Part shown: in pieces, positions 1 through 31,526 of the stretch
Position numbering within the stretch: the first letter of the stretch is position 1
Layout of the letters: the number at the start of each line of letters is the position of its first letter
Source: an uncultured bacterium
Lineage (GTDB): Bacteria > Omnitrophota > Omnitrophia > Omnitrophales > Abzuiibacteriaceae
Direction of reading: 5' to 3'
Length of the DNA: 64,000 bases
Assembly: GCA_964387845.1 (NCBI GenBank)
Contig: CAYLXA010000003.1
Location: forward strand, 1-64,000
Translations under genes and position numbers: made by a program
Notes under the pieces: model-generated
Database searches by the model: none
What the model was told of the DNA's origin: nothing
The model's input: the letters and a program-made list of their open reading frames with translations, nothing else

Positions 1-3000
1 AACAGTGTGACTTATCAGTTAAAGAATATCGGAGGTAGAGTGCTTTATTGGGAAGCATCAGAACCTTCCGTCGATTGGTATACGGTCTCTCCTTCAAGCG
101 GTACCTTACAAAGAGATGAGCAGGTCACAGTAACAGTTGCTTTCAGTCAAGATGCTAATTTACTGCCTGTGGGCAGTCATACGGATCAGGTGATCTTCAC
201 CAATACGGCCAGTGGGTATACGGTTGCAAGTGAACTAGATACGCCTGTTCAATCCACCCAGATGAGGGATGTGAGTTTGGAGATTAATCAAGCGTGCGAT
301 GACGGGAATGCGTGCAATGGGGCTGAAACCTGTGGTGCAGGAGGCGGATGTCAGGCTGGAACCCCTTTAACTTGTGATGACAACAATGTGTGTAACGGTA
401 TTGAATCTTGTGACTCTGTTAATGGTTGTCAATCGGGAACTCCTCTTTCGTGTGATGATGGTCAATTCTGTAATGGTGCTGAAACCTGCGACCAGACAGA
501 GGGCTGTACACCAGGAACAGATCCGTGTCCCGGGCAGAATTGTGATGATATGAATGATCAATGTATCAGCAACAACGAACCGCCGGTGGTAGATGCAGGC
601 CTTGATCAAACCATTCAACTTCCGAATGCGACCATGCTGGACGGGATTGTAACCGACGACGGACTGCCCGAACCATCCGAAATCACAACCTTGTGGCTGA
701 AATACAGCGGCCCGGGGAACGTTATGTTTTCGGAAGATTATTCGACCGATACATCAGTCAGTTTTTCAATAGACGGTGTGTATGTTTTAAGACTTTATGC
801 CAGTGACCGCGAAGCAGAAATATTTGATGATGTTCAAATCACCGTACTTCCTGAATGTACATCCGCCGCTGATTGCAATGACGGAAATGCGTGCACGGAA
901 GATATTTGCACTGCGAGAAGCGTTTGCCATGATGGGCAGCCGAATTGCACGCCGACTCCGAGCCGTTGCGAAAATCGGCCAAGGCCCTCCGGATTCTCAT
1001 GTTCTGACGGACTTTTCTGCAATGGTGCTGAAACCTGCAACGCCAACCAAGTTTGCCAACCCGGCACGCCGCCCAATTGCTCGGGCTTGAATGATCAATG
1101 CAACACCGGAATTTGCAACGAAACAACCGACCAATGCGTCACGAACCCGGTTGCAAACGGAACCATTTGTGACGACGGAAATGTGTGTACGCTGATGGAA
1201 CGCTGCTTAGACGGCGCATGCCAATCCGACATGATGGCACCGGGCTGTATTCCCTGCGATGAGGATTCGGACTGTAATGACAACAACGCTTGCGACGGAT
1301 TGGAACTTTGTCTGGCCGGACGCTGTCAAAACGGCATTCCATTAAATTGTGATGACGGAAACGCCTGCACGGCGGACAGCTGTCACCCGACTGACGGCTG
1401 CATGCACACGCCGATTCCGGATTGCATGTCTTGCGAAACCGATATTGATTGTAACGACGGAAATGTTTGCACAAGCGATTCGTGCTCCGGCGGAATCTGC
1501 ACTCACGGAAACCTGCCGCAAGGAACTGCCTGCTCGGACGGCACATTCTGTAACGGCGCTGAAACTTGTAACGGAGCGGGCGTCTGCGTGCCGGGGTCAG
1601 CTCCGGATTGTGAAGATATGGATCCGTGCACAAACGACAGCTGTAATAGTTCGACCGACTCGTGCGTTCATGACGCGATTCCGGATTGTCAAAGCTGCAT
1701 GAGCCCTGAAGAATGTGACGACGGCAATCCGTGTACCGATGAAAATTGCTTAACGCCGGTTTCCGGATCATTGGGAACCTGTATGTATTTCGATGCAGAA
1801 GACGGCAGAATTTGTGACAGCGACAACGATGTTTGTGACGGAACCGATACCTGCCAGGCCGGACAGTGCGCACCGGGCGATCCGCTCGATTGCGATGACG
1901 GCGATGCGTGCACGGCGGACAGCTGCAACCAAACCGGCGGCTGCATACACACACCGATTCCGGACTGTATTTCGTGCCAAACAAACGCACAATGCGATGA
2001 TTCCAATCCCTGCACTTCGGATATCTGTGCTCCGGAAGGTTCATGTTCTAACGAACCGGTCGCCAACGGCACCTCCTGCGCAGACAGCAATCTCTGTAAC
2101 GGTGCAGAGATTTGCCAAGCCGGAGTCTGTGAGCCCGGAACGCCGCTGAGTTGTAACGATGGAAACGTTTGTAATGGTGCTGAAACATGCAATCCAGTAT
2201 CAGGCTGTCAAGCCGGAACACCTCTGAGTTGTAACGACGGAAATGTATGCAACGGTACAGAATCTTGCGACCCGGCGCTTGGATGCCAGGCCGGAACGCC
2301 GTTGACATGTGATGATGGAAATGTGTGTAACGGCACGGAGAGTTGTGACGCCGCACTTGGGTGCCAAGCCGGTACACCGCTCACTTGTGATGACGGAAAT
2401 ATTTGCAACGGAACTGAAACATGCAACACAACAACCGGCTGTCAGACCGGAACGCCGCTCATTTGCAACGACGGCCTTTTCTGCAATGGATTAGAATCGT
2501 GCAGCCCGGCACTCGGGTGCCAAGCCGGGTCAAGCCCATGCCCCAGCGACGACGGGCTTTTCTGCAACGGAAATGAAGTCTGCGATGAAACAATTGATCA
2601 ATGTCAAAGTACGGGAAATCCGTGCCCTCCGGGCGAAACGTGCGATGAGCCGACCGATCAATGCTTGAGTGCCAATAATGCGCCGCCGGTAGTGAATGCA
2701 GGGTCGGATGCGTCTATCCCAATCTCCGGAACTATGAATCTTAATGGGAGCGCGACAGACGACGGGTTTCCAAATCCGCCGGCCACATTGATCACAACCT
2801 GGACTAAACAAAGCGGGCCCGGCAATGTTACGTTTGGAAATGAGAATGCGCCGCAAACAACAGCAACTTTCTCGGCTATGGGCAACTATGTACTGCGTTT
2901 AACTGCCGACGACAGCGCGCTTCAAGCGTTTGATGAAGTGACGATTCGGGTCACGCCCAATGTTTCAATTAGCCCCGGCCAATCGTATCACCGCAAAGGA

Positions 3001-5826
3001 TTTACGATGACTTTCCGGGATCAAAACGGAAATCCATATAACATCGGCGCTCAATATGAAGACACGTGCGTGATGTTCCGCGCAATCGGAAAATGGTTTA
3101 ACGACAGCCACTATGAGCCAATCGAGTGCGGCCTTGACGGAAACTATTATTATTGCGAAGACTTAAAAGCAACAGGGCCAGTTTATATTCGGTCCGAAAT
3201 TCCCGGCGGTCCGGACAGCATTATGACGGAACCAAAATGGCTTAGCTCAAATAAATTAAAAGCTTATGTTCCTAATGTTGATTTTTCCAAAGCGAGCTGT
3301 TCAAATCCACAAGATTCTTATGACGTGCAGGCTTACCATTTTGCGGTAACGACCGATTGCGAAGCGTACAAAAACGGCCCAATCGCGGAATTAGGCACTT
3401 ATCGCGTCGACCGCGATCCGATGCAGACATTAAACGGATTCTACGCCAATAAAATCTCGATTGATAAAATTTATATCGGCGGTTATCCGACCACTGCAAA
3501 CGGCGGAGCTGGCGAGCCTTTCTACCTCGACAATCCAAACGCCGATCAGCACATGCAGCCGTTTACAACCGCCAGCCCTGCTTATTCTGCTTACTTAAAA
3601 ACAACACCGTCCGTTGATCAATTGTTGGATTACGCAGCTTACCGAAGAGGATGGACGCAGTGTCTCGGTATGGGATGCGGATATGGCGTTCATTATGGCG
3701 GCGGAGAATATTCTGGCGCCTTTTCTCCAAAAGGAAGCCCGGCGGTTTTTGAAGTCTTAACCGGCACTCATTTCTTAGGGCCTACACCGTTTAATTTTGA
3801 TCATCCGAACCAGTGCGGTGCCAACTTTCCTGTTACACAGTTCAACACAGGCTGCGCTCCCGTAAAATGTGATGCCGGCTGGAAATACGATGAAAATTCA
3901 GGCTACGGAAATGAGGGCTGTTTTTATAATGCAATTATCCAAGATTCATACTCATGTCCTGTCGCATTCAATCCATACGTTAACGGAATAACGGTGGGAA
4001 TGCAGCAGCCGGTTTATGCGCCCGGTCAGCTTTCAGCAACCGAGCGGGAAAATCTTGCATTCGACTGGGATGGCAGCGTAGATGTTTATGAAGATATTTG
4101 GGTTATGCATGACGTATTAGGTTATTCAAAATTTGTCAGTCATCATGAAAATTGCTCGGAATATACTCAGGTCAGAATTAAAAATGAATGGTATGTCAAT
4201 GACCCATTCTTTAATCACTCGCTGTGTGAGGGCAGTCTAACCTGCGCCGGAACGCCAAATCCTCCCGCCTGTTACATTCTTGATACTGACTCAGGCAATA
4301 ATGGTTGCAATCCTGCAACCGGGACATGGATTTATAAACCTGGGGACAACGGCACTGCATGCAATGACGGCCTTTCATGCACAACGGGAGATGTGTGTGA
4401 TACTGGTGTTTGCCGCGGAGTTTCCAACTGTGATGACGGAAATCCCATGACATCGGACTCTTGCAATCCAAGTACAGGATTGTGTGAATCAACCGATCAC
4501 TGTGTCGAACAAAATACGGAATGCCGTGTTTCTACCGGGCAGTGCGGCGCTGACGGCCAATGTGTTTTTGAGAATTTGCCGGACGGAACTTCATGCAATG
4601 ATCAGAACGCCTGCACAAGTGCAAGCACATGCCAAGCCGGTGCATGTGTTTCAACTATCCCGCCTGATATGATCTGCAATGACGGCTTTACTTGCACTAT
4701 TGATACTTGCGATCCATTGATCGGATGCATTCAGATTCCGGATAATACTCAATGCACATTTCAGGGCAATCAATGCAAAACATTTATATGCGACCCTTAT
4801 TACTCAAGCCCGAACGGCTTTGAATATCCCAATCCTATAACAGGCTGTGTTGAGGGAGAGCGTCCTCCAGTTGCGCCGGCACCAGGCGCGGAATGCACCA
4901 ACCCAAGCAGCTATCCGGAGCAAGGCGACATGTGCGCGGCTGGTGAAGCATGTAGTGCAAGTTGTCAATGTGATTCGCTTTGCGGAAACGGCGTGTGGGA
5001 TCATCAAGCCGGCGAACTGTGCGATCCGACGGTCCCGGCTGGTAGCCCCGGTCATTATTACAACCCAATCGGAGACGATATCCGAATTTGTCAAAGTGAT
5101 TGCATGCCATGCGACAGTTGTGGCAACGGAACCGTGACAGCCGTTCTTGGAGAAGAATGCGAAATAGACCCTACGGCAGACGCGATGGACATTTGTGGAG
5201 ACCCGACTTCGGTAGGTCCGTCAACGCGAGGGGAATGCCGGTATCAATGCGCCAATGGCTGGCAAGATGGTATTTTGCAGGAAACGCCTGATGAGGTACC
5301 GTGCAACCCGGCCACTTTTTTATGTCCCGATGGAATCACAGAGTGTCATCCCGAATTTGCTCCCTGCCCTGTCCCGCCGGGCGAAACGTGTGATCCGCTA
5401 ACATCAGACGGCAGCAATGAAACTATTTGTGGAGAATCAACTCCCGGCGTTATCAGTCAAGGGTGCAGTCTTTATGATCCGTTTGGATCAGGCCATTATT
5501 ATTCCAGCTGCCGATGCACATCCGTAAAAATTATTCCGCAAGGGCCGACATTGGAAGACCGCGCATGTGATCTTGGCGTTACCTCGATTGACCCTTCTAT
5601 GTGGCTTGCTCCAGCGCAAACAGATCAATGCAAATTTGGATGTGTTGAAGTTTATGCCGCTCAAGGATGCCGCGCATCAACACCCCAAAATCCGTGTACG
5701 TGTTACGGGATCACAGAATGGCAAGAATATTTTCCCGAATTAGTTCCTATGGGTGGCGGCACGTTTTACCGGGTCATCAGCACTTCGGCCTGCATGGCTT
5801 CAGGAGAACCAATACCCGGAGAATAA
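1..5826 (+). CDS. Giant secreted Cys-rich repeat protein (adhesin-like), 5'-truncated at the window edge. It has more than 40 Cys-rich repeats of the form CxDGNxCNGxExC...GCQxGTPL, two PKD/Ig-like inserts (VVDAGxD...TDDGxP...SGPGNV), a unique central domain of about 420 aa, and C-terminal CGNG...GEECD repeats of the Myxococcus cysteine-rich repeat type.
   Basis: The ORF is open to position 1 in frame and there is no signal peptide at the apparent start, so the 5' end lies outside the window. The repeat pattern is highly periodic in the translation. Stop codon TAA at 5824-5826. Confidence 0.85.
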   Translation, partial: NSVTYQLKNIGGRVLYWEASEPSVDWYTVSPSSGTLQRDEQVTVTVAFSQDANLLPVGSHTDQVIFTNTASGYTVASELDTPVQSTQMRDVSLEINQACDDGNACNGAETCGAGGGCQAGTPLTCDDNNVCNGIESCDSVNGCQSGTPLSCDDGQFCNGAETCDQTEGCTPGTDPCPGQNCDDMNDQCISNNEPPVVDAGLDQTIQLPNATMLDGIVTDDGLPEPSEITTLWLKYSGPGNVMFSEDYSTDTSVSFSIDGVYVLRLYASDREAEIFDDVQITVLPECTSAADCNDGNACTEDICTARSVCHDGQPNCTPTPSRCENRPRPSGFSCSDGLFCNGAETCNANQVCQPGTPPNCSGLNDQCNTGICNETTDQCVTNPVANGTICDDGNVCTLMERCLDGACQSDMMAPGCIPCDEDSDCNDNNACDGLELCLAGRCQNGIPLNCDDGNACTADSCHPTDGCMHTPIPDCMSCETDIDCNDGNVCTSDSCSGGICTHGNLPQGTACSDGTFCNGAETCNGAGVCVPGSAPDCEDMDPCTNDSCNSSTDSCVHDAIPDCQSCMSPEECDDGNPCTDENCLTPVSGSLGTCMYFDAEDGRICDSDNDVCDGTDTCQAGQCAPGDPLDCDDGDACTADSCNQTGGCIHTPIPDCISCQTNAQCDDSNPCTSDICAPEGSCSNEPVANGTSCADSNLCNGAEICQAGVCEPGTPLSCNDGNVCNGAETCNPVSGCQAGTPLSCNDGNVCNGTESCDPALGCQAGTPLTCDDGNVCNGTESCDAALGCQAGTPLTCDDGNICNGTETCNTTTGCQTGTPLICNDGLFCNGLESCSPALGCQAGSSPCPSDDGLFCNGNEVCDETIDQCQSTGNPCPPGETCDEPTDQCLSANNAPPVVNAGSDASIPISGTMNLNGSATDDGFPNPPATLITTWTKQSGPGNVTFGNENAPQTTATFSAMGNYVLRLTADDSALQAFDEVTIRVTPNVSISPGQSYHRKGFTMTFRDQNGNPYNIGAQYEDTCVMFRAIGKWFNDSHYEPIECGLDGNYYYCEDLKATGPVYIRSEIPGGPDSIMTEPKWLSSNKLKAYVPNVDFSKASCSNPQDSYDVQAYHFAVTTDCEAYKNGPIAELGTYRVDRDPMQTLNGFYANKISIDKIYIGGYPTTANGGAGEPFYLDNPNADQHMQPFTTASPAYSAYLKTTPSVDQLLDYAAYRRGWTQCLGMGCGYGVHYGGGEYSGAFSPKGSPAVFEVLTGTHFLGPTPFNFDHPNQCGANFPVTQFNTGCAPVKCDAGWKYDENSGYGNEGCFYNAIIQDSYSCPVAFNPYVNGITVGMQQPVYAPGQLSATERENLAFDWDGSVDVYEDIWVMHDVLGYSKFVSHHENCSEYTQVRIKNEWYVNDPFFNHSLCEGSLTCAGTPNPPACYILDTDSGNNGCNPATGTWIYKPGDNGTACNDGLSCTTGDVCDTGVCRGVSNCDDGNPMTSDSCNPSTGLCESTDHCVEQNTECRVSTGQCGADGQCVFENLPDGTSCNDQNACTSASTCQAGACVSTIPPDMICNDGFTCTIDTCDPLIGCIQIPDNTQCTFQGNQCKTFICDPYYSSPNGFEYPNPITGCVEGERPPVAPAPGAECTNPSSYPEQGDMCAAGEACSASCQCDSLCGNGVWDHQAGELCDPTVPAGSPGHYYNPIGDDIRICQSDCMPCDSCGNGTVTAVLGEECEIDPTADAMDICGDPTSVGPSTRGECRYQCANGWQDGILQETPDEVPCNPATFLCPDGITECHPEFAPCPVPPGETCDPLTSDGSNETICGESTPGVISQGCSLYDPFGSGHYYSSCRCTSVKIIPQGPTLEDRACDLGVTSIDPSMWLAPAQTDQCKFGCVEVYAAQGCRASTPQNPCTCYGITEWQEYFPELVPMGGGTFYRVISTSACMASGEPIPGE

Positions 5827-5831: not shown

Positions 5832-6092
5832 TTATTTCTGGGTGAGTTCTTTCTTGCGGAGTAATAAATGCAGTGAATAGCGCGACTGAAAGCCGCCCAT
5901 CTTTTCCTGCGTACTTTTTAATTCCTTCTCAACTTCGGCGAGGGTCATCTTCGTAACTTTTTTGCGTTTCTCTGATGAGCCCGGCTGCGGCGCTTCTTCT
6001 TTTTTTTCTTCTTTGGCTTCCGCCTGAGGCTTTTTGGCTTCTTCTTTCTTCTCCGCTTTTTCTTCCTTCTTTTCCGCTTTTTCGTCTGTCAT
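5832..6092 (-). CDS. Small Lys/Glu-rich protein (86 aa) with a low-complexity KE-rich N-terminus and a short structured C-terminal segment. Function unknown.
   Basis: ATG start with a GGAG Shine-Dalgarno 7 nt upstream. The GAA/AAA-rich codon usage is consistent with coding sequence. Confidence 0.5.
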   Translation of the reverse strand: MTDEKAEKKEEKAEKKEEAKKPQAEAKEEKKEEAPQPGSSEKRKKVTKMTLAEVEKELKSTQEKMGGFQSRYSLHLLLRKKELTQK

Positions 6093-6105
6093 GATAGCTC
6101 CTAGA

Positions 6106-6186
6106 GAACGTCGAACTTAGAACCTCGAACTTCGAACATCTGAGAATATTTTTACGAGGTTCGACATTCGATGTTCGATGTCCGAA
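6106..6186. repeat. Intergenic inverted-repeat element, family A. The left arm is tandem (n)TCGAAC(n) units, the loop is 16 nt, and the right arm is tandem GTTCGA units.
   Basis: Arms 6106-6139 and 6156-6186 are read directly. The same architecture and core recur at 12139-12213 and 12631-12716. Confidence 0.7.
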
Positions 6187-6187
6187 T

Positions 6188-6565
6188 TTATTCTTTTCCT
6201 TTCATGCAGAGACCGGCGATCATGGCTTTCTCGCGTGATTTAATCCGGTTGACCAAATAAGTCATGGGATCCACCGGATTTTCCGGCATGAGTTTCCAGG
6301 TTTCCTGAATCTGAATATGGCGCGCGAGGACTTTCCGGAAAGTGTCATTTTCATCCATCGAAATCACAAGCTGCTTACGCAGGCGAATGAGCGTATTTGC
6401 ATTTTTAGGACAGCCTTCTTTATTTTTGAGGAGATCGATTTTATAAATCAAAACTTCAATGGCGGCGGAATTCCGGCGGATTTGGCAGCGGATCACTTTT
6501 TCCTGCCACTCAGTCAAAAGGCCGTTCGGGTCAATGACTTTGAGAAACTTCGGGTTTTTCTTCAT
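6188..6565 (-). CDS. Hypothetical protein (125 aa)
   Basis: ORF immediately downstream of, and translationally coupled to, the PilZ gene. No recognisable motif. Confidence 0.5.
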   Translation of the reverse strand: MKKNPKFLKVIDPNGLLTEWQEKVIRCQIRRNSAAIEVLIYKIDLLKNKEGCPKNANTLIRLRKQLVISMDENDTFRKVLARHIQIQETWKLMPENPVDPMTYLVNRIKSREKAMIAGLCMKGKE

Positions 6566-6567
6566 GA

Positions 6568-6957
6568 CTACCCTCCACCGGTTGCCTTACGAATCATCGG
6601 ATGTTTCTTTCCGTCATCATGAACAAAATCCAGAAGCGCGGCACGATCTACAGACTGGATAGTTTCAAATGCAACGCCGATCCGGTATTGATTCGGGCTT
6701 GAAGCGATTAATTTGCTCCAAGCCACACGCGCAGAAGCTTTCACAGTTTCTTTTTTGTTAGGAAGCTGGAATTCGAGGTTAATTTTGGAGCCGACCGCAT
6801 ACTCGGTCCCGGTGACAAGCCCAAAACCGTTTACGCCGACATCTTTTGTCCAAACTTCATCCAGGTAAGAAGGGTTGCCGGCGCCTTTTGAGCCTGCAGG
6901 CATGATTTTGACTGAGATCTTCTGATCAACTCTCGACCATTGTCTTTTATCCATCAA
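6568..6957 (-). CDS. PilZ-domain protein (probable c-di-GMP receptor)
   Basis: A KRQWSRV (RxxxR) motif near the N-terminus and a D-V-G-V-N-G-F-G (DxSxxG-like) motif, typical of PilZ domains. Confidence 0.5.
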   Translation of the reverse strand: MMDKRQWSRVDQKISVKIMPAGSKGAGNPSYLDEVWTKDVGVNGFGLVTGTEYAVGSKINLEFQLPNKKETVKASARVAWSKLIASSPNQYRIGVAFETIQSVDRAALLDFVHDDGKKHPMIRKATGGG

Positions 6958-7007
6958 TCACTCGTCTTGGCCTTTGACTTCGTTTGTCGGCACTCTTTCA
7001 ATCTTCT

Positions 7008-7056
7008 TTAGGGGACAGGTCTTTAATAATTAATTAAACAAGACCTGTCCCCTTAA
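7008..7056 (-). terminator. Strong hairpin downstream of the metallophosphoesterase gene, with a perfect 12-bp stem (GGGGACAGGTCT/AGACCTGTCCCC) and an 18-nt AT loop.
   Basis: Stem read directly. No clear U-tract, so an intrinsic-terminator role is tentative. Confidence 0.3.
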
Positions 7057-7116
7057 AGTTGACTTCTAAAAGTGTAATCGATGAAATTGTGGAGTGCAAG
7101 ACAATTGACGGAAAGA

Positions 7117-7986
7117 TTAAGGAAAAATATCAACCCAAATGGCCTCGGGCCGGCAGAAAAAACGGAGGAACAAAACGCGGTTTGCACCGACGCCGCGCGA
7201 GGCAAAACAATGCATATTTTGCACCACATGATAACCATCGATGGTTTCCATCGGCAATTTTGCATCCCGCGAGAAACCGCCTACAAAGGGAATCCTGACT
7301 TGCCCGCCGTGATGATGGCCCGAAAAAACGCAGTCAACCGGATGCTGGTCTTTCAACTCAATAATTGAATCCAGCACGTGCGTCAGCACGATATTGAACG
7401 AATCACTTTTCATTCCGCTTAAAGTTGTCTCAAAATTGACTTTCTGCGTGATCGGATCATCCGTGCCGCCGACAACCATCGAAGCTCCGTTCACATTAAA
7501 TGTCTGAGAACTATTCTTGAGAACCAAAAATCCGGCGGCTTCCAGCGTCCGTTTCAAATCCGCAACCCGGTTTGGTGTTTTAGATTTTGACGATTGAATA
7601 AAAATATAATAAATCGAATCAAAAAACCCATAATCCCAGTAATCATGGTTGCCCATAATCGCAATTTTGGCAATTTTTGCCTTTAAACGGCTTAGAAATT
7701 TTCCGCATGGTTCAATTCCGGGATCGTGATCAATAATGTCGCCTGTCACAAATATAAAATCGGGCTCCATGGTTTCCAATTTCTTAAAAAAAGGCTCTTT
7801 CCATGAGTTGTGCTTTGCGAAATGGATGTCGCTCAAATGCAAAATCGAAATCGGCTTTGAAAGCTTTTTGGACGATTTAATCTGAAACCTGCGGATCCGG
7901 AACCAGCGGGGTTCAATCAGGTATGAATAAATCAGAAAGGTAAGAACGACTAAAAGCGGGATTGTATATTCGGCGTAGAAAATCAT
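7117..7986 (-). CDS. Calcineurin-like metallophosphoesterase, membrane-anchored
   Basis: LHLSDIHF (DxH), GDIIDH (GD), GNHDYWD (GNHD/E) and GHHHGG (GHxH) motifs. N-terminal TM helix. Confidence 0.8.
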   Translation of the reverse strand: MIFYAEYTIPLLVVLTFLIYSYLIEPRWFRIRRFQIKSSKKLSKPISILHLSDIHFAKHNSWKEPFFKKLETMEPDFIFVTGDIIDHDPGIEPCGKFLSRLKAKIAKIAIMGNHDYWDYGFFDSIYYIFIQSSKSKTPNRVADLKRTLEAAGFLVLKNSSQTFNVNGASMVVGGTDDPITQKVNFETTLSGMKSDSFNIVLTHVLDSIIELKDQHPVDCVFSGHHHGGQVRIPFVGGFSRDAKLPMETIDGYHVVQNMHCFASRGVGANRVLFLRFFCRPEAIWVDIFP

Positions 7987-8405
7987 TACGAGCCCAAAGT
8001 TCCGGAGTCGCGATTAATTAAATCAGCGGCTTTTTTATTATCATCCGTTGAAAATACGCCGACGATCTTAAAGCCATCGCCACTCGTTCCGTAAACATAG
8101 TTGACATTCACGCCTTCACTGCCGAGAAGTTTGACAACAGGCGCCAGCGTTCCGACTTTGTTTTCAAATTCAACAATCAAAACATCACGGTCTTCGATTT
8201 TTGGAACAAAATAAGAAAGCGCTTTTTTGGCTTTTTCGTGATCACGCGTCACGATTTGAAAGTAACCTTTGTCTTCGTACGTGTAAGCCGATAAATGAAT
8301 AATATAAATCCCCTGCTCCGCAAGCGCGAGCGTAACGCGGCCCAGCGTCCCGATCTCGTTCTTGGTAACAAAATGTATTTCTTTTCCGATTTGAGCTCTA
8401 GCCAT
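7986..8405 (-). CDS. ACT-domain protein (tandem ACT domains)
   Basis: Two ~65-aa beta-alpha-beta-beta-alpha-beta units with G-T-L/G-x-x-A motifs. ATGA stop/start overlap with the downstream phosphoesterase gene. Confidence 0.65.
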   Translation of the reverse strand: MARAQIGKEIHFVTKNEIGTLGRVTLALAEQGIYIIHLSAYTYEDKGYFQIVTRDHEKAKKALSYFVPKIEDRDVLIVEFENKVGTLAPVVKLLGSEGVNVNYVYGTSGDGFKIVGVFSTDDNKKAADLINRDSGTLGS

Positions 8406-8443
8406 AACTGCCTATAGATGTTCCAATCGTTTATTCATCAAAG

Positions 8444-8498
8444 TTATGGCTGGCCCTCGCGCTATTGATTGAATATAAAAGCGCGATGGGCGAGCCAT
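8444..8498. promoter_or_regulatory. Conserved palindromic element E, copy 1: GCCCTCGCGCT - ATTGATTGAATATAAA - AGCGCGATGGGC. It ends 40 nt upstream of the ACT gene start.
   Basis: A near-identical element at 12066-12120 lies at the same distance upstream of the FNR gene. Confidence 0.5.
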
Positions 8499-8516
8499 GA
8501 TTTACCTATAAATGTC

Positions 8517-8577
8517 TGTCATTCTGAGCGGAGCGAAGAATCTAGGTCTTAGATCCTTCACTTCGTTCAGGATGACA
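8517..8577. terminator. Imperfect 29-bp palindrome (CTGTCATTCTGAGCGGAGCGAAGAATCT ... AGATCCTTCACTTCGTTCAGGATGACAG) 10 nt downstream of the AKR stop. Probable terminator or REP-like hairpin.
   Basis: Arms read directly. The five mismatches are all transitions. Confidence 0.4.
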
Positions 8578-8587
8578 GGAGCTGCTG

Positions 8588-9553
8588 TCAATTATGATAA
8601 AACCCTTCCTTGAATATTTCGTCACTCTCGTAGATATCCTGAATTTTTGATATTTCTTCACTCGAAAGCCTCGGGTCTTCTACGGCCTTCAAATGATCTT
8701 CAACATGCTGAGCAGTTTTCATACCCGGAATCACGGTCGACACCGCTGAAAATGACAACACGTACTCCAGCGCCGCTTGCTTGAGGCTTACTTTTTTTGT
8801 ATCAAACGCATCTTGGATCCGTTTTACCTTGTCTAAATCTTTTAAATATTTATCACGCATCCAGCGATTGCGATGGTCCACTTTGTGAAATTTGCTGTCC
8901 GCCGTATATTTCCCCGTCAAAAGCCCGCAGGCCAAGGGTTCGCGCGCAAGAATTCCGATTTTATTCTTCTCGCACAATGGAAATAACTCCGGAACGGGAC
9001 GCTGGTCTATTAAATTGAAAATCACTTGTAGCGTATCGGACTTGCCGTTTTGGTTTGCGGATATTCCTTCATCAATCCGGTGAATGGAGGTTCCGTAGTG
9101 GAGGATTTTTCCTTCTTTCTTGAGTTCATCGAGAACTTTGTAAACCTCGCCTTTTTCGATTTCGTCGCGCTTTGGATTGTGAAGTTGGTAGAGATCAATA
9201 TGATCTGTTTTGAGGCGTTTTAAACTTTCGCCGCATGCGAAACGAATGTGCTCAGCTGAGAAATTTTTCTTGGTGCCGCCGTGATAAAAATCCCAACCGG
9301 CTTTTGTCGCAATAAAAACTTTGAGGCGTTTAGAGCTTTCTTTGAAGGTTTGGCCTATAAGCGTTTCGCTATGGCCGTCGCCATAAACATCGGCAGTATC
9401 GTAAAAAGTAATGCCGTGATCGTAAGCAAATGATAACGCTTTGAGGGAATCTTGATCGTTTGTTGGGCCATAGCCTGTTCCGCCGATGGCCCAACAACCG
9501 AATCCGAGTGAGGAAACTTCTTTTTTAGTTCGGCCTAATGTCCGAAACTGCAT
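8588..9553 (-). CDS. Aldo/keto reductase family oxidoreductase
   Basis: N-terminal LGFGCWAIGG and DTADVYGDGHSE motifs. Length is typical for an AKR. Confidence 0.85.
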   Translation of the reverse strand: MQFRTLGRTKKEVSSLGFGCWAIGGTGYGPTNDQDSLKALSFAYDHGITFYDTADVYGDGHSETLIGQTFKESSKRLKVFIATKAGWDFYHGGTKKNFSAEHIRFACGESLKRLKTDHIDLYQLHNPKRDEIEKGEVYKVLDELKKEGKILHYGTSIHRIDEGISANQNGKSDTLQVIFNLIDQRPVPELFPLCEKNKIGILAREPLACGLLTGKYTADSKFHKVDHRNRWMRDKYLKDLDKVKRIQDAFDTKKVSLKQAALEYVLSFSAVSTVIPGMKTAQHVEDHLKAVEDPRLSSEEISKIQDIYESDEIFKEGFYHN

Positions 9554-10620
9554 TAAACGCTGACTTTTTCTCGCTTGGGTGACGCTGAAGGATCAACGAC
9601 TTCGATTTTATCCAAGCCGCCGTATTTTTCCCACCAAGGACGGGCGCCTTTTTCTAAAATCTTGTTGAGGGCTTCGATATTCTTGACGCCGCGGTCATTC
9701 ATCCATTTTTCAAGCGCTGCCCCGCCTTCTTTGCCGTATACCGGAATACCTTCTTTCCAGGTTGCGCGGCCGCAAAGAACACCGGCCCAGTTGGTGCCGG
9801 ATTCGATCGCAAGTTCCAAGGTTTCGCGGAACACATTGTCATCAACACCGGCGCTTAAATAAATAAACGGCTTTGTCGCGACATCCGCGGCTTTCTTGAA
9901 AAGCTTCTTCGCTTCTTCACGCGTATAGGCAACCTGACCGGTTTTGTTGGCAGAAGAGCCTTGCACATACTCAATATTGATCGGAACTTCGACTTTCAAA
10001 ACGTCGACTTTGTATTGCGGCTTCGAAAATTCGCGCATCGAGCCGGTCACGAGCTCGGGTTTCTTTTTCGCGAACTCCAAACCTTTTTCATCGCCGCCTT
10101 TTGCGTCATAAGTGACAAACTCGAGGAAAAACGCAATGTCTTCGGCTTCGCACTCAGAACCAATGCGCTCAACCCACGCGTGTTTGATATCGTTGATTTC
10201 TTTGGTGTCTTCGGGTGTGTAATAAAGAAGAATTTTTACGGCGTCAGCGCCTTTGGCCTTAATGCGCTGAACGGATTCATTCACGAGTAAATCGGGAAGA
10301 CGGCCCGGCGTGTTGGCATCGTAGCCCGTTTTTTCATACGCGAGCAGAAGCCCCGCGTTTTTCGAACGCGCTTTCGCGGCCGGCAGGCCGAATTCGGGAT
10401 CGAGTAAAATCGCGGTTGCATGAGGAGTTAAAACTCTTGAAACGATGGTTTTGAATTCTTCCATCATCGCCTGCGTGACTTGCTTCGCATCGACGCCCTT
10501 GGCTTTCGCGATTGATTTTTGAAGCGAACCACGCTGATCCATGGCCGCTGCGGCGATCACGCCTTTTTTATTGGATAAATTCTTAATTCCCTGAAACTTC
10601 CCTTTTGTAATTTTGAACAT
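9553..10620 (-). CDS. Class I aldolase of the LacD family (tagatose-1,6-bisphosphate aldolase or sulfofructose-phosphate aldolase-like)
   Basis: Strong block identity to LacD over full length: AAMDQRGSL, LLDPEFGLPA, GLLLAYEKTGYD, GRLPD, ERIGSEC.AEDI.FFLE, DVLKVEVP, IYLSAGV, GVLCGRATW. Confidence 0.85.
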   Translation of the reverse strand: MFKITKGKFQGIKNLSNKKGVIAAAAMDQRGSLQKSIAKAKGVDAKQVTQAMMEEFKTIVSRVLTPHATAILLDPEFGLPAAKARSKNAGLLLAYEKTGYDANTPGRLPDLLVNESVQRIKAKGADAVKILLYYTPEDTKEINDIKHAWVERIGSECEAEDIAFFLEFVTYDAKGGDEKGLEFAKKKPELVTGSMREFSKPQYKVDVLKVEVPINIEYVQGSSANKTGQVAYTREEAKKLFKKAADVATKPFIYLSAGVDDNVFRETLELAIESGTNWAGVLCGRATWKEGIPVYGKEGGAALEKWMNDRGVKNIEALNKILEKGARPWWEKYGGLDKIEVVDPSASPKREKVSV

Positions 10621-10640
10621 GTTTTCTCCGTTAACCTTGT

Positions 10641-10961
10641 TTATAAAATAGAATCGATTTCGCTTTTCAAGCGGTCTTCCGGCTGAAAGCCGACAATTTG
10701 TTTAACGTTTTGCCCATTCTTAAAAAGAATGATGGTCGGAATGCCCTGAATGCCGAACTGCTGCGGCGTGTTTTCATTATCATCCACGTTCATTTTCCCG
10801 ACTTTGAGCTTGCCGCTGTAATCCTTGGCGATTTTCTCAACCACGGGGCCCAGCATTTTGCACGGCCCGCACCACTCCGCCCAAAAATCAACCAATACGG
10901 GAATTTTTGAGTCCAAAACTTCGGATTTGAAATTTGCGTCTGTAATCACTGATTCGCTCAT
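10641..10961 (-). CDS. trxA: Thioredoxin
   Basis: WAEWCGPCK active site. 106 aa. Confidence 0.9.
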   Translation of the reverse strand: MSESVITDANFKSEVLDSKIPVLVDFWAEWCGPCKMLGPVVEKIAKDYSGKLKVGKMNVDDNENTPQQFGIQGIPTIILFKNGQNVKQIVGFQPEDRLKSEIDSIL

Positions 10962-10979
10962 GTAAATCTCCTTGTCTAT

Positions 10980-11068
10980 GCTTCAAGCTTCAAGCTTCAG
11001 GCTTCAAGATTAAAGAATTGTGCCGCTTTAAGCTTGCGGCATGCAGCTTGTAGCTGCTTAACTTGCGA
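10980..11068. repeat. Intergenic inverted-repeat element, family B. The left arm is tandem GCTTCAAG/CAAGCnn heptamers, the loop is ~17 nt, and the right arm is tandem AAGCTTGnnGC units.
   Basis: Read directly. The same family occurs at 32806-32848/33218-33263 and 60664-60737. Confidence 0.7.
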
Positions 11069-11135
11069 ATGAGCTTCATATTATATAGCGATGGGTTCTT
11101 TTTGTCCATATAGCCATTTTTATCTGGAAATTGGG

Positions 11136-12026
11136 CTAGTAAACTTCAACCAAGAGGCGCTTTTCGGAGCGGAGAAATTCGGCAAAACCCTCGTTATTGA
11201 GGTCTTTGCCGATCATGTTGAGGAGCGGATAAATGCCGTCTTCCATTCCCTTTAAACCGCAAAGATAAATCAGACTGTTGCTCCGAGAGAAAATTTTGCT
11301 CAGGAGTTCGCGGTCTTCATACATTCTAACTTGTACGTACATTTTGTTTTGGCGGGTCGTGATAGCATTCGGATACGGGTTTGTCTCTTCGCGGCTGATG
11401 GCAATCGAATAATGAAAATTCGGATATTTCGCAGCGAGTGCTTTAAATTCGTTGTCATAAAGAATCGTGTCTTTGTAAGGAACGCCCAGGTAAAGGCAGA
11501 CTTTCTTTTTATAACCGGCTTCGAACATTTCAATCAACATGCCGCGAAACGGTGCAATGCCGGTTCCGGTTGCAACAAAGACGATATCGCGGTCCAGAAA
11601 ATCATCCGGCAATACAAAATGTTTTCCGGCGGGGCCCGTCATTTTGACTTGATCGTTCGGTTTTAAATCACAAAGGTAGTTGCTCGCAACACCCGGCTGG
11701 CGTTTTTGGCCGGTCTTGGGATTATCAAAAAAGTGCCGGACAACACAAATAGAAACCGTTTTGCCATCGCCTTTGTCACCTTTGCGCGTTGACGCAATGG
11801 AATAAAGCCTGAGGCCGTTTGGTTTTCCGCTGCGGGAATCAACCCCCGGCGGGATGATGCCCACGCTTTGGCCTGGAACGTACGGGTAATTGCCGTCAAA
11901 GCGGATGACAATGTGGCGCACATCATTGTCAAGCCCGTGCGCCGCGCCTGTAATCCGTTTGTTGTCAACAATCGTGCCGGACAACGGATTATTTAGTTTG
12001 TAAATATTAACTGCTAGTTCGGTCAT
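11136..12026 (-). CDS. Ferredoxin-NADP+ reductase (plant-type FNR family)
   Basis: RLYSIAS FAD-binding motif, GTGIAPFR NADP-binding motif, CLYLG. Confidence 0.85.
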   Translation of the reverse strand: MTELAVNIYKLNNPLSGTIVDNKRITGAAHGLDNDVRHIVIRFDGNYPYVPGQSVGIIPPGVDSRSGKPNGLRLYSIASTRKGDKGDGKTVSICVVRHFFDNPKTGQKRQPGVASNYLCDLKPNDQVKMTGPAGKHFVLPDDFLDRDIVFVATGTGIAPFRGMLIEMFEAGYKKKVCLYLGVPYKDTILYDNEFKALAAKYPNFHYSIAISREETNPYPNAITTRQNKMYVQVRMYEDRELLSKIFSRSNSLIYLCGLKGMEDGIYPLLNMIGKDLNNEGFAEFLRSEKRLLVEVY

Positions 12027-12065
12027 GATTCTCCTATAACAACCCGATCATTTATTCATTGGTAA

Positions 12066-12120
12066 TCATGACCGCCCTTGCGCTATTAGTTGTATATAAA
12101 AGCGCAACGGGCACTCATAT
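12066..12120. promoter_or_regulatory. Conserved palindromic element E, copy 2: CCGCCCTTGCGCT - ATTAGTTGTATATAAA - AGCGCAACGGGC. It ends 40 nt upstream of the FNR start.
   Basis: Paralogous to 8444-8498, with the same spacing to the downstream start codon. Confidence 0.5.
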
Positions 12121-12138
12121 GACTCCATTTTAAAGACG

Positions 12139-12213
12139 GACTTCGAACATCGAACCTAGAACATCATTTTCAGTATTGACCTACGTTCGAAGTTCCAGGT
12201 TCGAGGTTCGATA
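12139..12213. repeat. Inverted-repeat element, family A (TCGAAC heptamer arms), copy 2
   Basis: Arms 12139-12165 and 12183-12213 are read directly. Confidence 0.7.
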
Positions 12214-12234
12214 CTTTCTGCTATAATCCGCATT

Positions 12235-12624
12235 ATGAATGAAATTCGCCTCTTGCAATTCCTTATTTGTAAAGAATTTCGCGAAGAAGGTCAAGATGCT
12301 TATTGCGCGGGGTTTGTGCGCAGCAATCTCTATGTTCCCGAGTTTCCATTTTACCTGACCGACCTGCATGCTGTCACCTGCTGGCAGAAAGACGGGCGGT
12401 TTCACAAAGAAGTGATCGAATACGCCACCGATTACGGCGAATCGGTCAAAAGCCCGCATATGGACATTGAGCCGGCCAAAGGGAGTGTAATTTTCCGCTG
12501 GCACGCGCATCAATTTCCGACTGATTTCGCGATTGAGCGGCCGACCACTCTGACGGTTCGCGTGATTCTCGACTGGGAAGTCAAATTTGAATCACAGCTC
12601 ATGATTGAGAAACGACCGGCATAA
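12235..12624 (+). CDS. Hypothetical protein (129 aa) bracketed by two family-A elements
   Basis: A TATAAT at 12222-12227 lies only 7 nt before the ATG, suggesting a leaderless transcript. No recognisable domain. Confidence 0.4.
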   Translation: MNEIRLLQFLICKEFREEGQDAYCAGFVRSNLYVPEFPFYLTDLHAVTCWQKDGRFHKEVIEYATDYGESVKSPHMDIEPAKGSVIFRWHAHQFPTDFAIERPTTLTVRVILDWEVKFESQLMIEKRPA

Positions 12625-12630
12625 TTACGA

Positions 12631-12716
12631 GCGAACATCGAACTTCGGACATCGAACATCGTATCAATTATTGGTTCAATTCTCGATGTTCGAGGTTCTA
12701 TGTTTGAAGTCCGATA
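12631..12716. repeat. Inverted-repeat element, family A, copy 3
   Basis: Arms 12631-12661 (CGAACATCGAACTTCGGACATCGAACATC) and 12683-12716 are read directly. Confidence 0.7.
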
Positions 12717-12913
12717 TTTTTTAGCAACTGAACTCATGCTGAAGCCGCGTCGCCGGAAACCAAACCATTCCTTTGCTGCATTCCCCACCGCAATCATCGA
12801 AAGCGCTTTTTGGCATGAAATAAAAGATATCGCCTAGAACATAAAAAGGCGAGAAAAGGTAGAATTTCATACAACCAAAGAAAAGTAAATATACAAAGAT
12901 ATATCGGTAGCTT

Positions 12914-15508
12914 TTACGCATGAGTCCCATTAAAGCAAAAACCATTGCTTTTGTCATCTACAGAAACATGCACCGTATCGCCATCCTTGTAATCACCGGA
13001 AAGAAGCCGTAAAGCCAGCGGATCTTGGATGCCGCGCTGAATCAAGCGACGTAAGGGTCTTGCGCCATATTCAGGGTCATATCCCTCAAATGCTAGTTTG
13101 TCTTTTGCTTTCTTTTCAATCTTGATATGAAGATTTCGAGCTGCCAGTTTTCGATCAAGCTCTAAAAGTTCGAGTTCCACAATTTTTTGAATATCACTTG
13201 AAGATAATTTATTGAAAATTACTATTTCATCCAAGCGATTTAAGAATTCCGGTTTGAAATTCTTCTTCAACTCTTCCTGAATATTTTTCCTCAAAGATTC
13301 CTTAGACTCGACATCATTGAAATAATGTGAGCCGATGTTAGAAGTCATAATAATAACCGTGTTTTTAAAATTGACAACACGGCCTTGGCCGTCCGTTAAG
13401 CGGCCGTCTTCTAAAATTTGAAGCAGCACGTTAAATACATCCGGATGCGCTTTTTCGATTTCATCAAACAGAATCACCGAGTAAGGTCTCCGGCGAACTC
13501 GCTCTGTTAATTGTCCGCCTTCTTCGTAACCTACATATCCGGGCGGAGCGCCGATCAAACGGCTTGTGGAATGCTTTTCCATATATTCTGACATATCGAT
13601 CCGAATGAGCGCATTTTCATCGTCAAACAAAAACCACGCCAAACTCTTTGCTAAATAAGTTTTCCCGACTCCGGTCGGGCCCAAGAAAATGAACGACCCA
13701 ATTGGACGATTTATATCGGAAAGCCCTGAGCGTGAGCGGCGAACTGCATTTGAAATGAGCGAGATTGCCTCATCCTGACCGACCACGCGGGCTTGAAGCT
13801 GCTTTTCCATATGAACCAGTTTCTCGACCTCGCCTTGCATTAATTTTGAAACAGGAATGCCTGTCCATTTAGACACAATTTCCGCAATATCTTCTTCGCC
13901 AACTTCTTCTTGAAGCATTTTGCTTTTCTTTTGAATTTCCTGAAATTTTTTATTCTCGACTTCTAGCTTTTTTTCAAACTCGCGAAGTCTACCGTACCTA
14001 ATTTCGGCCACTTTATCCAACTTTCCTTCCTTTTCAAGGCGCGACTCTTCAAGTTTTGCTTTTTCAATATCTTCTTTAATTCGTCGAATTGAATCAATTG
14101 CCGCTTTTTCATTACTCCATCGAAGTTTCATTTCATCGCGTCTCGACTTAAGCTCGGAAAGTTCTTCCTCCAATTTTTTACGGCGATCCCCGGATGCTTT
14201 ATCGCTTTCTTTCTTCAATGCTTGTTTTTCAATTTCAAACTGCATGATCTTGCGCTCAAGAATATCGATTTCGGTCGGAAGGCTGTCGATCTCAATACGT
14301 AACTTGGAGGCAGCTTCATCAATCAGGTCAATCGCTTTGTCCGGCAAAAATCTATCAGTAATATAGCGATGAGAAAGTGTCGCGGCAGCAATAAGCGCAT
14401 CATCCTTTACTCGAACGCCATGAAAGATTTCGTAACGTTCTTTCAGGCCGCGCAAGATTGCGATCGTATCTTCAACCGTAGGTTCGCCGATAAAAATGGG
14501 CTGAAATCTGCGTTCAAGCGCTTTGTCTTTTTCAATATATTTTCTGTATTCATCAAGTGTGGTCGCGCCAATACAGCGAAGTTCTCCGCGTGCAAGCGCA
14601 GGCTTTAACATGTTGGAAGCATCGACAGCCCCTTCAGCTCCGCCGGCGCCAACAATAGTATGAAGTTCGTCAATAAAAAGAACGATTTCGCCGGCCTTCG
14701 ATTCAACTTCTTTTAAAACCGCTTTTAAGCGATCTTCAAATTCTCCTCGATATTTCGAACCGGCAACCATAGCTCCGATGTCGAGCGCTATAATTCGTTT
14801 ATTTTTAAGAAGTGTTGGGATGTCTCCATCTGCGATTCTTTTTGCAAGACCTTCTACTATCGCTGTTTTTCCGGTTCCCGGGTCTCCGATCAAGACCGGA
14901 TTATTTTTAGTACGGCGTGAAAGCACTTGAATTGCGCGACGAATTTCTGAGTCGCGGCCTATCACTGGATCCAACTTACCTTGCCTGGCAAGCTGTGTAA
15001 GGTCGCGGCCATATTTTTCAAGTGCTTGATATTTCTGTTCGGGATTTTGATCTGAGACACGATGAACGCCGCGCACTTCTTTCAATGCCTTCAGAATCGC
15101 ATTTCTTTCGATACCATGCTTTTTGAGAAGGGGCTGAAGCTTTGAATCTTTCTCTTGAGAAATCGCGAGAAGCAGATGTTCGATGCTTACATAATCATCC
15201 TTTAAAACTTCCGCTTCTCTCGCGGTTTGATCCAATAACTTCTTCAAATGCGGCGAAAAAAATGCTTGAGTGTCATTGCCCTCTACTTTTGGATTTGAAT
15301 CTATTAAACTTTGAATATCGTTCTGAAGCAAACCAACATTGGTGCCCAATTTTTGAAGAATGGGCACAGCAATTGAATCTTCGATTGTCAAAAGCGCCAG
15401 GAAAAGATGTTCCACTCGCACTTCTTGATTGCCGTGATTTCTTGCAATCTCAAGTGATGCTTGAACACTTTCCTGCGCTTTTAGTGTTAGCTTGTCCATC
15501 CTGAACAT
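12914..15508 (-). CDS. clpB: ATP-dependent chaperone ClpB (Hsp104 family disaggregase)
   Basis: Two AAA+ modules (GDPGTGKT and GPTGVGKT Walker A), a long coiled-coil middle domain and an N-terminal Clp_N repeat. 864 aa. Confidence 0.95.
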
Positions 15509-25576: not shown

Positions 25577-25668
25577 CGTCTAGCGGATAGCGCATAGCGT
25601 TTAGGAACGAGTGGTTTTTGAATGCTTTTCTATTCGCTATACGCTAAACGCTACCCGCTAAAAGCGAA
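25574..25668. repeat. Inverted-repeat element, family C. The left arm is TAGCGnn heptamers, the loop is ~25 nt, and the right arm is nnCGCTA heptamers. It lies between convergent genes.
   Basis: Read directly. A related arm is present at the window end (63966-64000). Confidence 0.65.
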
Positions 25669-30857: not shown

Positions 30858-30944
30858 GTTTAATTCCTCCTTGTAATCCCCGTAAACCACGGGGCAAACC
30901 TCACGCGAAATTCGCGTTAAGGTGCTTATTTATTAAGCCAGTTT

Positions 30945-31400
30945 TCAGATAGCAGATGTCAGAAAACAGAAGTCAGACATAAAATTTTTTCCAACTTTTA
31001 ATGAGCGAATAAAGCATTGCATTGACTTCATCATATTTTGCATCCAATTTTTCGTGGACGGATTTTTCGATATAGCCACAATCAAGCGAGAAATCCAACC
31101 AACCTCTTGTCTCTTCGCTTGAACCAAAAGCATCGTTCAAATGCCGAATAAACAATTGTTCGTACTTTCTTTTTGCATACCCTTCTCGGATATTGATAGC
31201 TACCGATCTAGAGGATCTTCTGATTTGGTCAGTTAAAGAGTAGGTTTCTGGTTTGGGAAACTTTTTTGTGATTTCGAAAACGTCCAATGCAAGATTATAA
31301 GCTATGTTATAGACCTTTAAATCTTTGACAATTTTTATCACACGCTTAGTTCCTAAACTTTAACCTTCTGATTTCTGACTTCAGTCCTCCGACTTCTGTA
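30945..31400. mobile_element. IVS-like inverted-repeat element of about 456 bp carrying a four-helix-bundle gene. Arms are CAGAAnn/TTCTGAn heptamer arrays at 30945-30979 and 31365-31400.
   Basis: Arms read directly. The ORF sits in the loop. Confidence 0.6.
30973..31341 (-). CDS. Four-helix-bundle protein (23S rRNA intervening-sequence protein / Avd-like family)
   Basis: N-terminus YNIAYNLALDVFEITKKFPK...QIRRSSRSVAINIREGYAKR is typical of the family. GTG start with an AGGAA Shine-Dalgarno. Confidence 0.8.
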   Translation of the reverse strand: MIKIVKDLKVYNIAYNLALDVFEITKKFPKPETYSLTDQIRRSSRSVAINIREGYAKRKYEQLFIRHLNDAFGSSEETRGWLDFSLDCGYIEKSVHEKLDAKYDEVNAMLYSLIKSWKKFYV

Positions 31401-31526
31401 ATCATATTAGAAAGAGCTAAATTAAGTATCGCCTCGGTTAATTATCAAGTCAACAGCAGAAAACCTACCCACTTGGCTTACTTTAACGGCTTAATAAGTC
31501 CGATTCTTGATTGTGAGTTTTCAGTC

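Follow-up and report, generated by a model that had tools for sequence, protein, structure and literature searches.

The stretch of DNA analysed here, in the following called the window, comprises 64,000 nt (positions 1 to 64,000 of contig CAYLXA010000003.1, assembly GCA_964387845.1) from an uncultured bacterium of the Omnitrophota, a metagenome-assembled genome whose affiliation is also indicated by the neighbours of the window proteins. In the spaces between its protein-coding genes it carries three short inverted-repeat elements, E1, E3 and E4, which had been proposed in a first-pass annotation and which we refer to as Family A hairpins. Direct reading of the sequence, Tandem Repeats Finder and an inverted-repeat finder agree that these elements are real. 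Each of them consists of 4-5 tandem heptamers with the core TCGAACN, an AT-rich loop of 14-23 nt and then the complementary array.

E1 (6105-6189) has its left arm at about 6106-6140, the loop at about 6141-6154 and the right arm at about 6155-6186, with the units GAACGTC, GAACTTA, GAACCTC, GAACTTC and GAACATC before the loop and GAGGTTC, GACATTC, GATGTTC and GATGTCC after it. It occupies the whole spacer from the stop codon of one open reading frame (ORF; 6188-6565, minus strand) to the GGAG/ATG of the next (5832-6092, minus strand). E3 (12135-12215; left arm 12139-12165, loop 12166-12184, right arm 12185-12213) shows the units TCGAACA, TCGAACC and TAGAACA to the left and GTTCGAA, GTTCCAG, GTTCGAG and GTTCGA to the right of its loop. 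It is situated between the divergent FNR gene (11136-12026, minus strand) and ORF129 (12235-12624, plus strand), 20 nt upstream of a start codon. E4 (12627-12716; left arm 12632-12661, loop 12662-12683, right arm 12684-12713), with the units CGAACAT, CGAACTT, CGGACAT and CGAACAT and, past the loop, CGATGTT, CGAGGTT, CTATGTT and TGAAGTC, fills the gap separating ORF129 from a small convergent ORF (12721-12957, minus strand). The location at operon junctions that had been claimed for all three elements is thus only partly correct: E1 has co-directional, E3 divergent and E4 convergent genes as neighbours.

According to Tandem Repeats Finder the period of the arms is 7, with 3.3-4.6 copies per arm, and not 7-8 as first described. 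The inverted-repeat finder reports arms of 22-30 nt which are 77-87% complementary and 22-27 nt apart. The predicted RNA folds of the three elements have energies of -27.6 to -33.9 kcal/mol, with z-scores of -2.9 to -5.5 relative to dinucleotide shuffles (for E3 on the minus strand, -33.9 kcal/mol and z -5.5), and contain a mismatch at roughly each seventh position. In an alignment of the three copies conservation is confined to the heptamer arms, while the loops cannot be aligned and are not homologous. The elements are thus not a single lineage of miniature inverted-repeat transposable elements (MITEs), which bears out the doubt raised earlier. They were also correctly set apart from clustered regularly interspaced short palindromic repeats (CRISPR), since their units are contiguous 7-mers in inverted blocks and not repeats of 25-40 nt with unique spacers, and from ordinary terminators, since a consensus terminator and promoter scan flags none of the Family A hairpins as a whole and a T run is found after E4 alone, on the plus strand. 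Scans of the window with Rfam (gathering thresholds) and for tRNA and tmRNA gave no match, and the window contains no rRNA; the flanks of the Family A hairpins are protein-coding genes and not helix 25 or 45 of 23S rRNA.

The other families postulated earlier are present as well, with the cores CAAGCTN (E2, 10971-11062, and E9, 60662-60736), YAGCGNN (E5, 25571-25668, and an element from 63965 to the end of the window) and TTCAAAT (E8, 60102-60171). Under one detection rule the window has 16 arrays of period 7 but only 0, 1, 0, 1, 0 and 0 of periods 4, 5, 6, 8, 10 and 11, against a mean of 0.55 in shuffled sequence.

Comparison with related genomes reveals how the Family A hairpins came to their sites. 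In the sister locus L001 the gene order is kept, with 89% identity for FNR and 87% for ORF129, but there are no period-7 arrays in 20.9 kb and no heptamer hairpins at the junctions of E1, E2, E3 and E4. The outgroup L189 (FNR 61% identical) also keeps the gene order and has no E1, E3 or E4. Without the hairpin, the spacer at the E1 junction measures 29 nt in L001 and 13 nt in L189, and the convergent stop codons at the E4 site, which are about 96 nt apart in the window, are separated by 4 nt in L001. Because the elements are absent from both relatives while the same genes are retained, E1, E3 and E4 represent insertions of 75-95 bp in the lineage of the window, which take up the room from a stop codon to the following gene signal. 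The units, made up of both arms and the loop, are either wholly present or wholly missing, with no intermediates, at a flanking-protein identity of 87-89%. As far as sequence comparison goes, the Family A hairpins are shown to be lineage-specific insertions, and the Family A elements in this lineage are of recent expansion.

ORF129, the gene enclosed by E3 and E4, was examined as a possible cargo of these elements and ruled out, because it is a conserved host gene found in the same place without arrays in L001 and L189. Two further differences between the window and L001 lie close by. In the window (12914-15508) a clpB gene is present, which in L001 (9104-9355) is missing between hsp20 and the small conserved ORF; this difference directly adjoins E4. 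The conserved FNR leader, present as a single copy in the window (12027-12130), is duplicated in tandem in L001 over about 130 nt (at about 9800-10000).

The first-pass annotation had overlooked that the same architecture brackets two genes of the window and that this association holds across phyla, the TCGAAC core included. Both genes belong to PF05635/TIGR02436, the 23S rRNA intervening-sequence proteins (IVPs; also named S23p or 'four helix bundle' proteins), and each lies inside inverted heptamer arrays. Cassette E6 (30945-31398, minus strand) has been inserted into the spacer that separates pilC from a pilin gene. Its IVP gene (30973-31341, minus strand; PF05635 E-value 5e-33, with a TIGR02436 match) has CAGAAGT-type arms upstream (31365-31398) and downstream (30945-30977). 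Cassette E7 (32799-33264, minus strand), inserted between pilB and pilC, carries an IVP gene (32828-33214, minus strand; PF05635 E-value 2e-27) with CARGCTN arms at 33204-33264 upstream and 32799-32844 downstream, and the last units of its right arm (32799-32830) contribute the GGAG that lies upstream of the start of pilC. The core CAAGCTN is common to E7 and the short hairpins E2 and E9. In both the minimum free energy and the centroid structure the arms of E6 and E7 close the predicted RNA fold around the ORF; thus, structure modelling shows a long stem that the arms are predicted to form around the IVP gene.

The spacer between pilC and the pilin gene contains, in addition, an outer inverted bracket (CTTATTAAGCC ... 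GGCTTAATAA(A)TAAGCAC; 30895-30945 and 31440-31500) which encloses E6. Its right half is found in the window and in the relatives L186 (11300-11690) and L188 (11440-11480), its left half in the window and L186.

At the pil genes, too, the occupants differ between relatives. L186, whose PilB and PilC are 89% identical to those of the window, has an IVP cassette in the pilB-pilC spacer as well, but its protein is only 34% identical to that of E7 and not orthologous to it, and the core is TTAATGT. Despite this replacement a CAAGCTN right-arm remnant persists next to pilC in L186 (9975-10000) and holds the GGAG before the pilC start. The more distant L188 (PilC 63% identical) possesses a third IVP, with AACCAGN arms. 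Cassette E6 is missing from both L186 and L188. The 3' end of the gene for the zinc-dependent alcohol dehydrogenase (ADH) is followed by the YAGCGNN hairpin E5 in the window, by a hairpin with a GTCTTGA core in L186 and by an element with a TAGCGTN core in L188. In the 5' region of the thioredoxin gene trx, where the window has E2, L001 (10894-11092) shows a different, unrelated hairpin repeat (GTCATTGCGAGGAGCCGAAGGCGACGTGGCAATC ... CGCAATGAC). Since one and the same site has different occupants across relatives, occupied sites are reused or overwritten; on the evidence of these alignments, cassettes are exchanged in place between sister genomes. L188, itself a member of the Omnitrophota, also harbours a Y1 (IS200/RAYT-type) transposase gene (19337-19960) about 10 kb from its IVP cassette, for which no link to heptamer arrays was seen.

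The association between IVP genes and heptamer arrays was studied in 80 loci with a total of 1.0 Mb, which were retrieved via alignment of IVP homologues and come from Omnitrophota, Planctomycetota, Nitrospirota, Desulfobacterota, WOR-3, Kryptoniota, Methanophagales, Halobacteriota, Nitrosotalea and others. Period-7 arrays are found on both sides in 64 of the 88 IVP copies with full flanks (68 on the low-coordinate and 75 on the high-coordinate side). Within 200 nt of an IVP gene the density of arrays is 3.75 per kb, compared to 0.23 per kb elsewhere (16-fold). The spacing of complementary arrays has two peaks, one at 350-450 nt, which corresponds to one IVP ORF, and one below 100 nt, which corresponds to gene-less hairpins. 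With an iterated profile 111 IVP ORFs were identified. Of the flanks that have an array, 59 of 71 upstream and 69 of 75 downstream show 7 as the best period, and period 8 is in the minority. Arrays mostly comprise 4-6 units with a mode of 5, a length estimate that is inflated by a few bases through the detection window. The heptamer cores vary by clade and roughly track the IVP tree. As 55 of 61 IVP genes share the orientation of both neighbours, these genes lie inside host transcription units. In the comparison of arrays outside the cassettes with the cassette arms of the same locus the similarity is 3.60 versus 3.25 out of 7, which is significant but small.

Of 72,556 plasmids, 42 carry an IVP gene, and nearly all of these are cyanobacterial (20 from Nostoc). 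In all eight loci examined from this set, seven cyanobacterial and one from Azospirillum, at least one side of the gene has arrays of period 7 or 8, and in seven loci both sides do; the IVP gene of the gamma plasmid of Nostoc PCC 7120 has an array downstream only. The plasmid IVP gene of Nostoc flagelliforme is bracketed by GCAGGGA/CCCTGCT arms. In Pseudanabaena galeata (L088, 1263-2731) the plasmid gene lies between cas6 and cas4 and has 14 direct copies of AAAAGCT/AAAAGCC on one side and 9 on the other, with complementary AGCTGTT arrays farther out, so that the layout is nested and not a simple inverted pair.

If Family A belongs to the same class, IVP genes with TCGAAC arms around them are to be expected somewhere. 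To test this prediction a metagenome collection was scanned with the pattern TCGAACNTCGAACN{380,410}GTTCGANGTTCGA, which matched 35 contigs. In seven of these (L154, L157, L158, L160, L161, L163, L176) an IVP gene lies between the arms. The seven proteins are closely related, with 60-97% identity to one another (tblastn), and the three that were scanned, from L154, L158 and L163, match PF05635 with E-values of 6e-11 to 1e-14; the other four were recognised by tblastn. The remaining contigs contain long satellites or pairs of neighbouring hairpins. In a viral collection TCGAACNTCGAACNTCGAAC occurs in 61 stretches, and Family A arrays are present but no IVP gene was found among them. In one contig of 40 kb from this collection Family A hairpins are numerous and their loop, about 45 nt long, is conserved; they constitute a genuine multi-copy family.

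Two other arrangements of this heptamer were seen. L164, L165, L173 and L184 (WNGL/WNFY/WNGH) are contigs of 1-3 kb which consist almost entirely of TCGAAC-type heptamers in alternating orientation; they are satellite-like and far longer than the hairpins. A viral unit of four GTTCGAG copies, about 112 nt of AT-rich sequence and two TCGAAC copies is found in L091 (11238-11360), L113 (1659-1785) and L138 (6835-6960). L114 and L122 were assigned to it by the same spacing of about 112 nt; the order of the arms is opposite to that of the hairpins.

Taken together, E1, E3 and E4 are probably ORF-less members of a class of insertion elements of the intervening sequence (IVS) type, located in operon spacers outside rRNA. 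The full-length form of this class, going by its arrangement, is a PF05635/TIGR02436 gene inside two inverted arrays of about 4-6 tandem heptamers, which is the architecture of the classical 23S IVS. Because there is no PF05635 ORF between their arms, where only a loop of 14-23 nt is found, the Family A copies are filed as ORF-less derivatives and not as full members. The earlier suggestion of a stem that is acted on by RNase III or bound by a protein has proved the most promising lead, given the analogy with the 23S IVS stem, which has the same architecture and is cut by RNase III in Coxiella in vitro (PMC4990558).

This analogy also provides a putative mechanism. On transcription of the host operon the two arms would pair to an imperfect double-stranded RNA stem of about 25-35 bp, which RNase III would probably process as it does in the rRNA-borne IVSs. 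Such processing would be the reason why insertion into essential operons (nuo, pil, trx) is tolerable. The polycistronic mRNA may be split at the hairpin, and the arms can be co-opted to supply stop codons or Shine-Dalgarno sequences. With respect to insertion itself, the data point to reuse or replacement at sites which are already occupied.

Several known systems resemble the elements of the window. In Coxiella burnetii tandem GACAGAT heptamers in strain-variable number lie in the 5' arm of the IVS, upstream of the S23p ORF (Warrier et al. 2016, PMC4990558), and the inverted repeats at the ends of the IVS make up a 28-bp stem which RNase III cuts in the middle in vitro (PMC4990558). Apart from this note on Coxiella we found no paper that states a general association between IVP genes and heptamers, although our coverage of the literature is incomplete and an earlier description is possible. 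The 23S IVSs with an S23p ORF, known from Leptospira, Coxiella burnetii, Brucella and the Xanthomonas group (PMC4990558), share with the cassettes of the window a PF05635 ORF of about 120 aa and an inverted-repeat stem of about 28 bp. However, the elements of the window are located in the spacers between protein-coding genes of operons and not in helix 25 or 45, an ORF is missing from the Family A copies, the cores are different, and RNase III cleavage is only extrapolated from the rRNA-borne elements. The IVP gene of Azospirillum lipoferum lies within an LSU rRNA gene (Rfam RF02541), with GACAGAG/GACGGAG heptamer arms on both sides, and is therefore part of a true IVS. ORF-less 23S IVSs of Salmonella, Yersinia and Campylobacter are stem-loops of about 90-150 nt which are removed by RNase III (PMC4990558, PMC2801512), are likewise short and non-coding, and are tolerated on account of this removal from the RNA. 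These elements sit in rRNA, which the hairpins of the window do not. We know of no tandem heptamer build in them.

Heterocystous cyanobacteria reportedly contain short tandemly repeated repetitive (STRR) heptanucleotides, described by Mazel and colleagues in 1990, which are said to be intergenic, to have a conserved core and to form many families per genome. The arrays beside the cyanobacterial plasmid IVP genes are repeats of the STRR type. The arrays of the window are similar in being intergenic tandem heptanucleotides with a conserved core, but the canonical STRR1-3 units are not present, the cores are TCGAACN and others, and the host is a member of the Omnitrophota. The term STRR is in use (PMC5088731); in the STRR literature that could be searched no link to PF05635 genes was found. 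The TAACTGA repeats of Beggiatoaceae, cyanobacteria and Bacteroidetes (MacGregor 2015, PMC4679880) are also intergenic tandem heptamers, within a few nucleotides of start codons, with a patchy spread across phyla. They differ in that they consist of one fixed heptamer, are direct and almost never inverted, and have no reported association with a gene (PMC4679880). REPINs, hairpins formed by repetitive extragenic palindromes (REPs), and their REP-associated tyrosine transposases (RAYTs) (Bertels and Rainey 2011, PMC3116915) are similar in layout, as dispersed intergenic hairpin repeats of which the same type is inverted around a single small gene. In our case, however, the flanked gene encodes a PF05635 four-helix bundle without known catalytic activity and not a Y1 transposase, and heptamer arrays take the place of a unique palindrome.

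A number of observations weigh against the assignment of E1, E3 and E4 to the IVS-type class. No Family A-armed IVP gene is present in the 64 kb of the window, and for this reason the three hairpins are linked to IVPs only via their architecture and via cassettes in other organisms. In the alignment the loops give no support for the descent of the three hairpins from a single recent master. Compared with the empty sites of L001, no target-site duplication is found at E1, E3 or E4. In about one quarter of the IVP copies, mostly divergent paralogues, arrays were not detected. The arms are not exact inverted copies, as permutation of the unit order yields a mean z of only 0.75. G.U and A.C oppositions are about equally frequent (79 versus 72), which gives no sign in the sequence of selection for pairing at the RNA level. 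The advantage of the IVP sense strand in duplex energy (58 versus 21) was considered as evidence for such selection and dropped, because in view of these oppositions stacking asymmetry alone can suffice. The fold of E2 is no better than that of shuffled sequences (z about -1), and E2 is therefore the weakest member of the set. Finally, the phyla from which RNase III cleavage would be extrapolated to the window hairpins are other than that of their host.

Among other explanations, it is possible, and compatible with membership in the IVS-type class, that the arrays are binding sites, the heptamer being the unit bound by a multimeric nucleic-acid-binding protein. The most plausible candidate would be the cognate IVP as a pentamer, with about five units wrapping one ring and the hairpins serving as dispersed binding sites, much as REPINs relate to RAYTs. 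The arms are complementary via the common core and not unit by unit, which suggests that the heptamer is a unit of recognition or synthesis; that each heptamer keeps its core while this complementarity is lost speaks for a binding-site model. There are weak Pfam/NCBIfam matches to Avd, a relative which acts with nucleic acid and a reverse transcriptase in diversity-generating retroelements. The closest relative with a solved structure, XCC0516 (2GSC), was deposited with five chains and has been described as a homopentameric toroid (PMC4990558), and the mode of 5 units per array, inflated as that estimate is, would fit such a ring. The cores track the IVP clades, and a single subfamily of IVPs is accompanied by Family A arms, but cores and IVPs could co-vary through joint inheritance alone. 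Furthermore, S23p is apparently not made in Coxiella (PMC4990558). We regard direct recognition by the IVP as tentative.

It is less likely that the hairpins are RNA elements selected by the host, i.e. intercistronic stabilisers, processing sites or terminators comparable to the REPs and bacterial interspersed mosaic elements of enterobacterial operons, kept for setting the relative expression of neighbouring genes and only incidentally linked to IVPs. The elements do fit exactly between stop and start codons and leave the downstream GGAG uncovered, E4 separates convergent genes and has its T run after it, and the ADH 3' end and the trx 5' untranslated region (UTR) hold different hairpins in relatives, as if these sites could need a hairpin. 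However, none of the three Family A sites has a hairpin in the sister or the outgroup, none of the elements was flagged by the terminator scan, and selection for structure gives no reason for a heptamer period or for a 16-fold clustering at one gene family.

Growth in place is very unlikely. Under this explanation STRR-type simple-sequence arrays would arise and expand by slipped-strand mispairing, their inversion would stem from palindromic seeds such as TTCGAA and AAGCTT, and no mobile element would be involved. A palindromic hexamer or tetramer is indeed present in several cores, the repeat number varies (also among Coxiella strains, PMC4990558), and long pure TCGAAC-type satellites exist in metagenomes. 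Slippage does not explain units of 75-95 bp which are wholly present or absent without intermediates, a single site that holds different cores and a non-orthologous IVP in sister genomes, or the strong tie to one gene family. Classical MITEs or REPINs mobilised by an insertion-sequence or RAYT transposase encoded elsewhere in the genome can hardly be meant here, although the elements are short, intergenic, present in several copies and inverted at their termini and L188 has a Y1 transposase nearby, because target-site duplications are missing, the window copies share no internal sequence, the arms are tandem heptamers and not unique terminal sequences, and the gene between the arms is PF05635 in 64 of 88 cases and not a transposase.

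The IVS-type reading of the hairpins can be extended, although in a form which we consider speculative and rather improbable as a whole. PF05635 genes and inverted heptamer arrays might constitute one self-propagating system across bacteria and archaea, in which the pentameric IVP would recognise its own heptamers with about one unit per subunit. The protein, or else a route via RNA, with excision by RNase III and a reverse transcriptase that works in trans, would then drive the insertion and the in-place replacement of cassettes and of ORF-less hairpins. 23S IVSs, cyanobacterial STRRs and IVP genes in cas and other operons would be faces of a single class. To our knowledge, the origin and spread of both the 23S IVSs, known since the 1990s, and the STRR repeats, known since 1990, are without explanation. 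Genes for 'four helix bundle proteins' are among the commonest unexplained small genes of environmental genomes and occur within cas, pilus and other operons. IVP genes within cas operons have been noted earlier without mention of the repeats (PMC3936711). One architecture ties together the 23S IVSs, the STRR-type repeats and these scattered genes, it exists in gene-carrying and gene-less forms, and genomes with 89% identity in flanking proteins differ in its gain, loss and replacement at fixed intergenic sites; these three results make the matter testable. In practice, such hairpins reshape operon spacers by adding stop codons and Shine-Dalgarno sequences, and in metagenome-assembled genomes they can lead programs astray that call repeats, CRISPRs or genes.

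The remaining heptamer elements of the window occupy similar positions. E2 probably lies in the trx 5' UTR, because it is placed between a promoter-like site (11108-11080, minus strand) and the thioredoxin start at 10961. E5 marks the convergent junction past the zinc-ADH gene and is predicted to fold with -43.4 kcal/mol (z -5.2); the TAG stop codon of this gene sits in the first heptamer of the element (25571-25577). Among the nuo genes, E8 (fold z -4.4) is found between nuoE and nuoF and E9 (-41.4 kcal/mol, z -5.9) between nuoD and nuoE. Of the second YAGCGNN element (63965-64000) only the left arm is present, because the window ends within it.

Two repeats of another kind were noticed near the left end of the window. 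At 7007-7056, between the genes for a PilZ-domain protein and a metallophosphoesterase, lies a non-heptameric palindrome of 25+25 nt, 84% complementary and without spacer (TTTAGGGGACAGGTC.../...GACCTGTCCCCTTAA). The ORF at 7-5826 (plus strand), which may begin upstream of the window, encodes a cysteine-rich protein of 1939 aa with many CNGxExC-type repeats; its sequence has a tandem period of 78 nt, with a repeat at 2135-2474.

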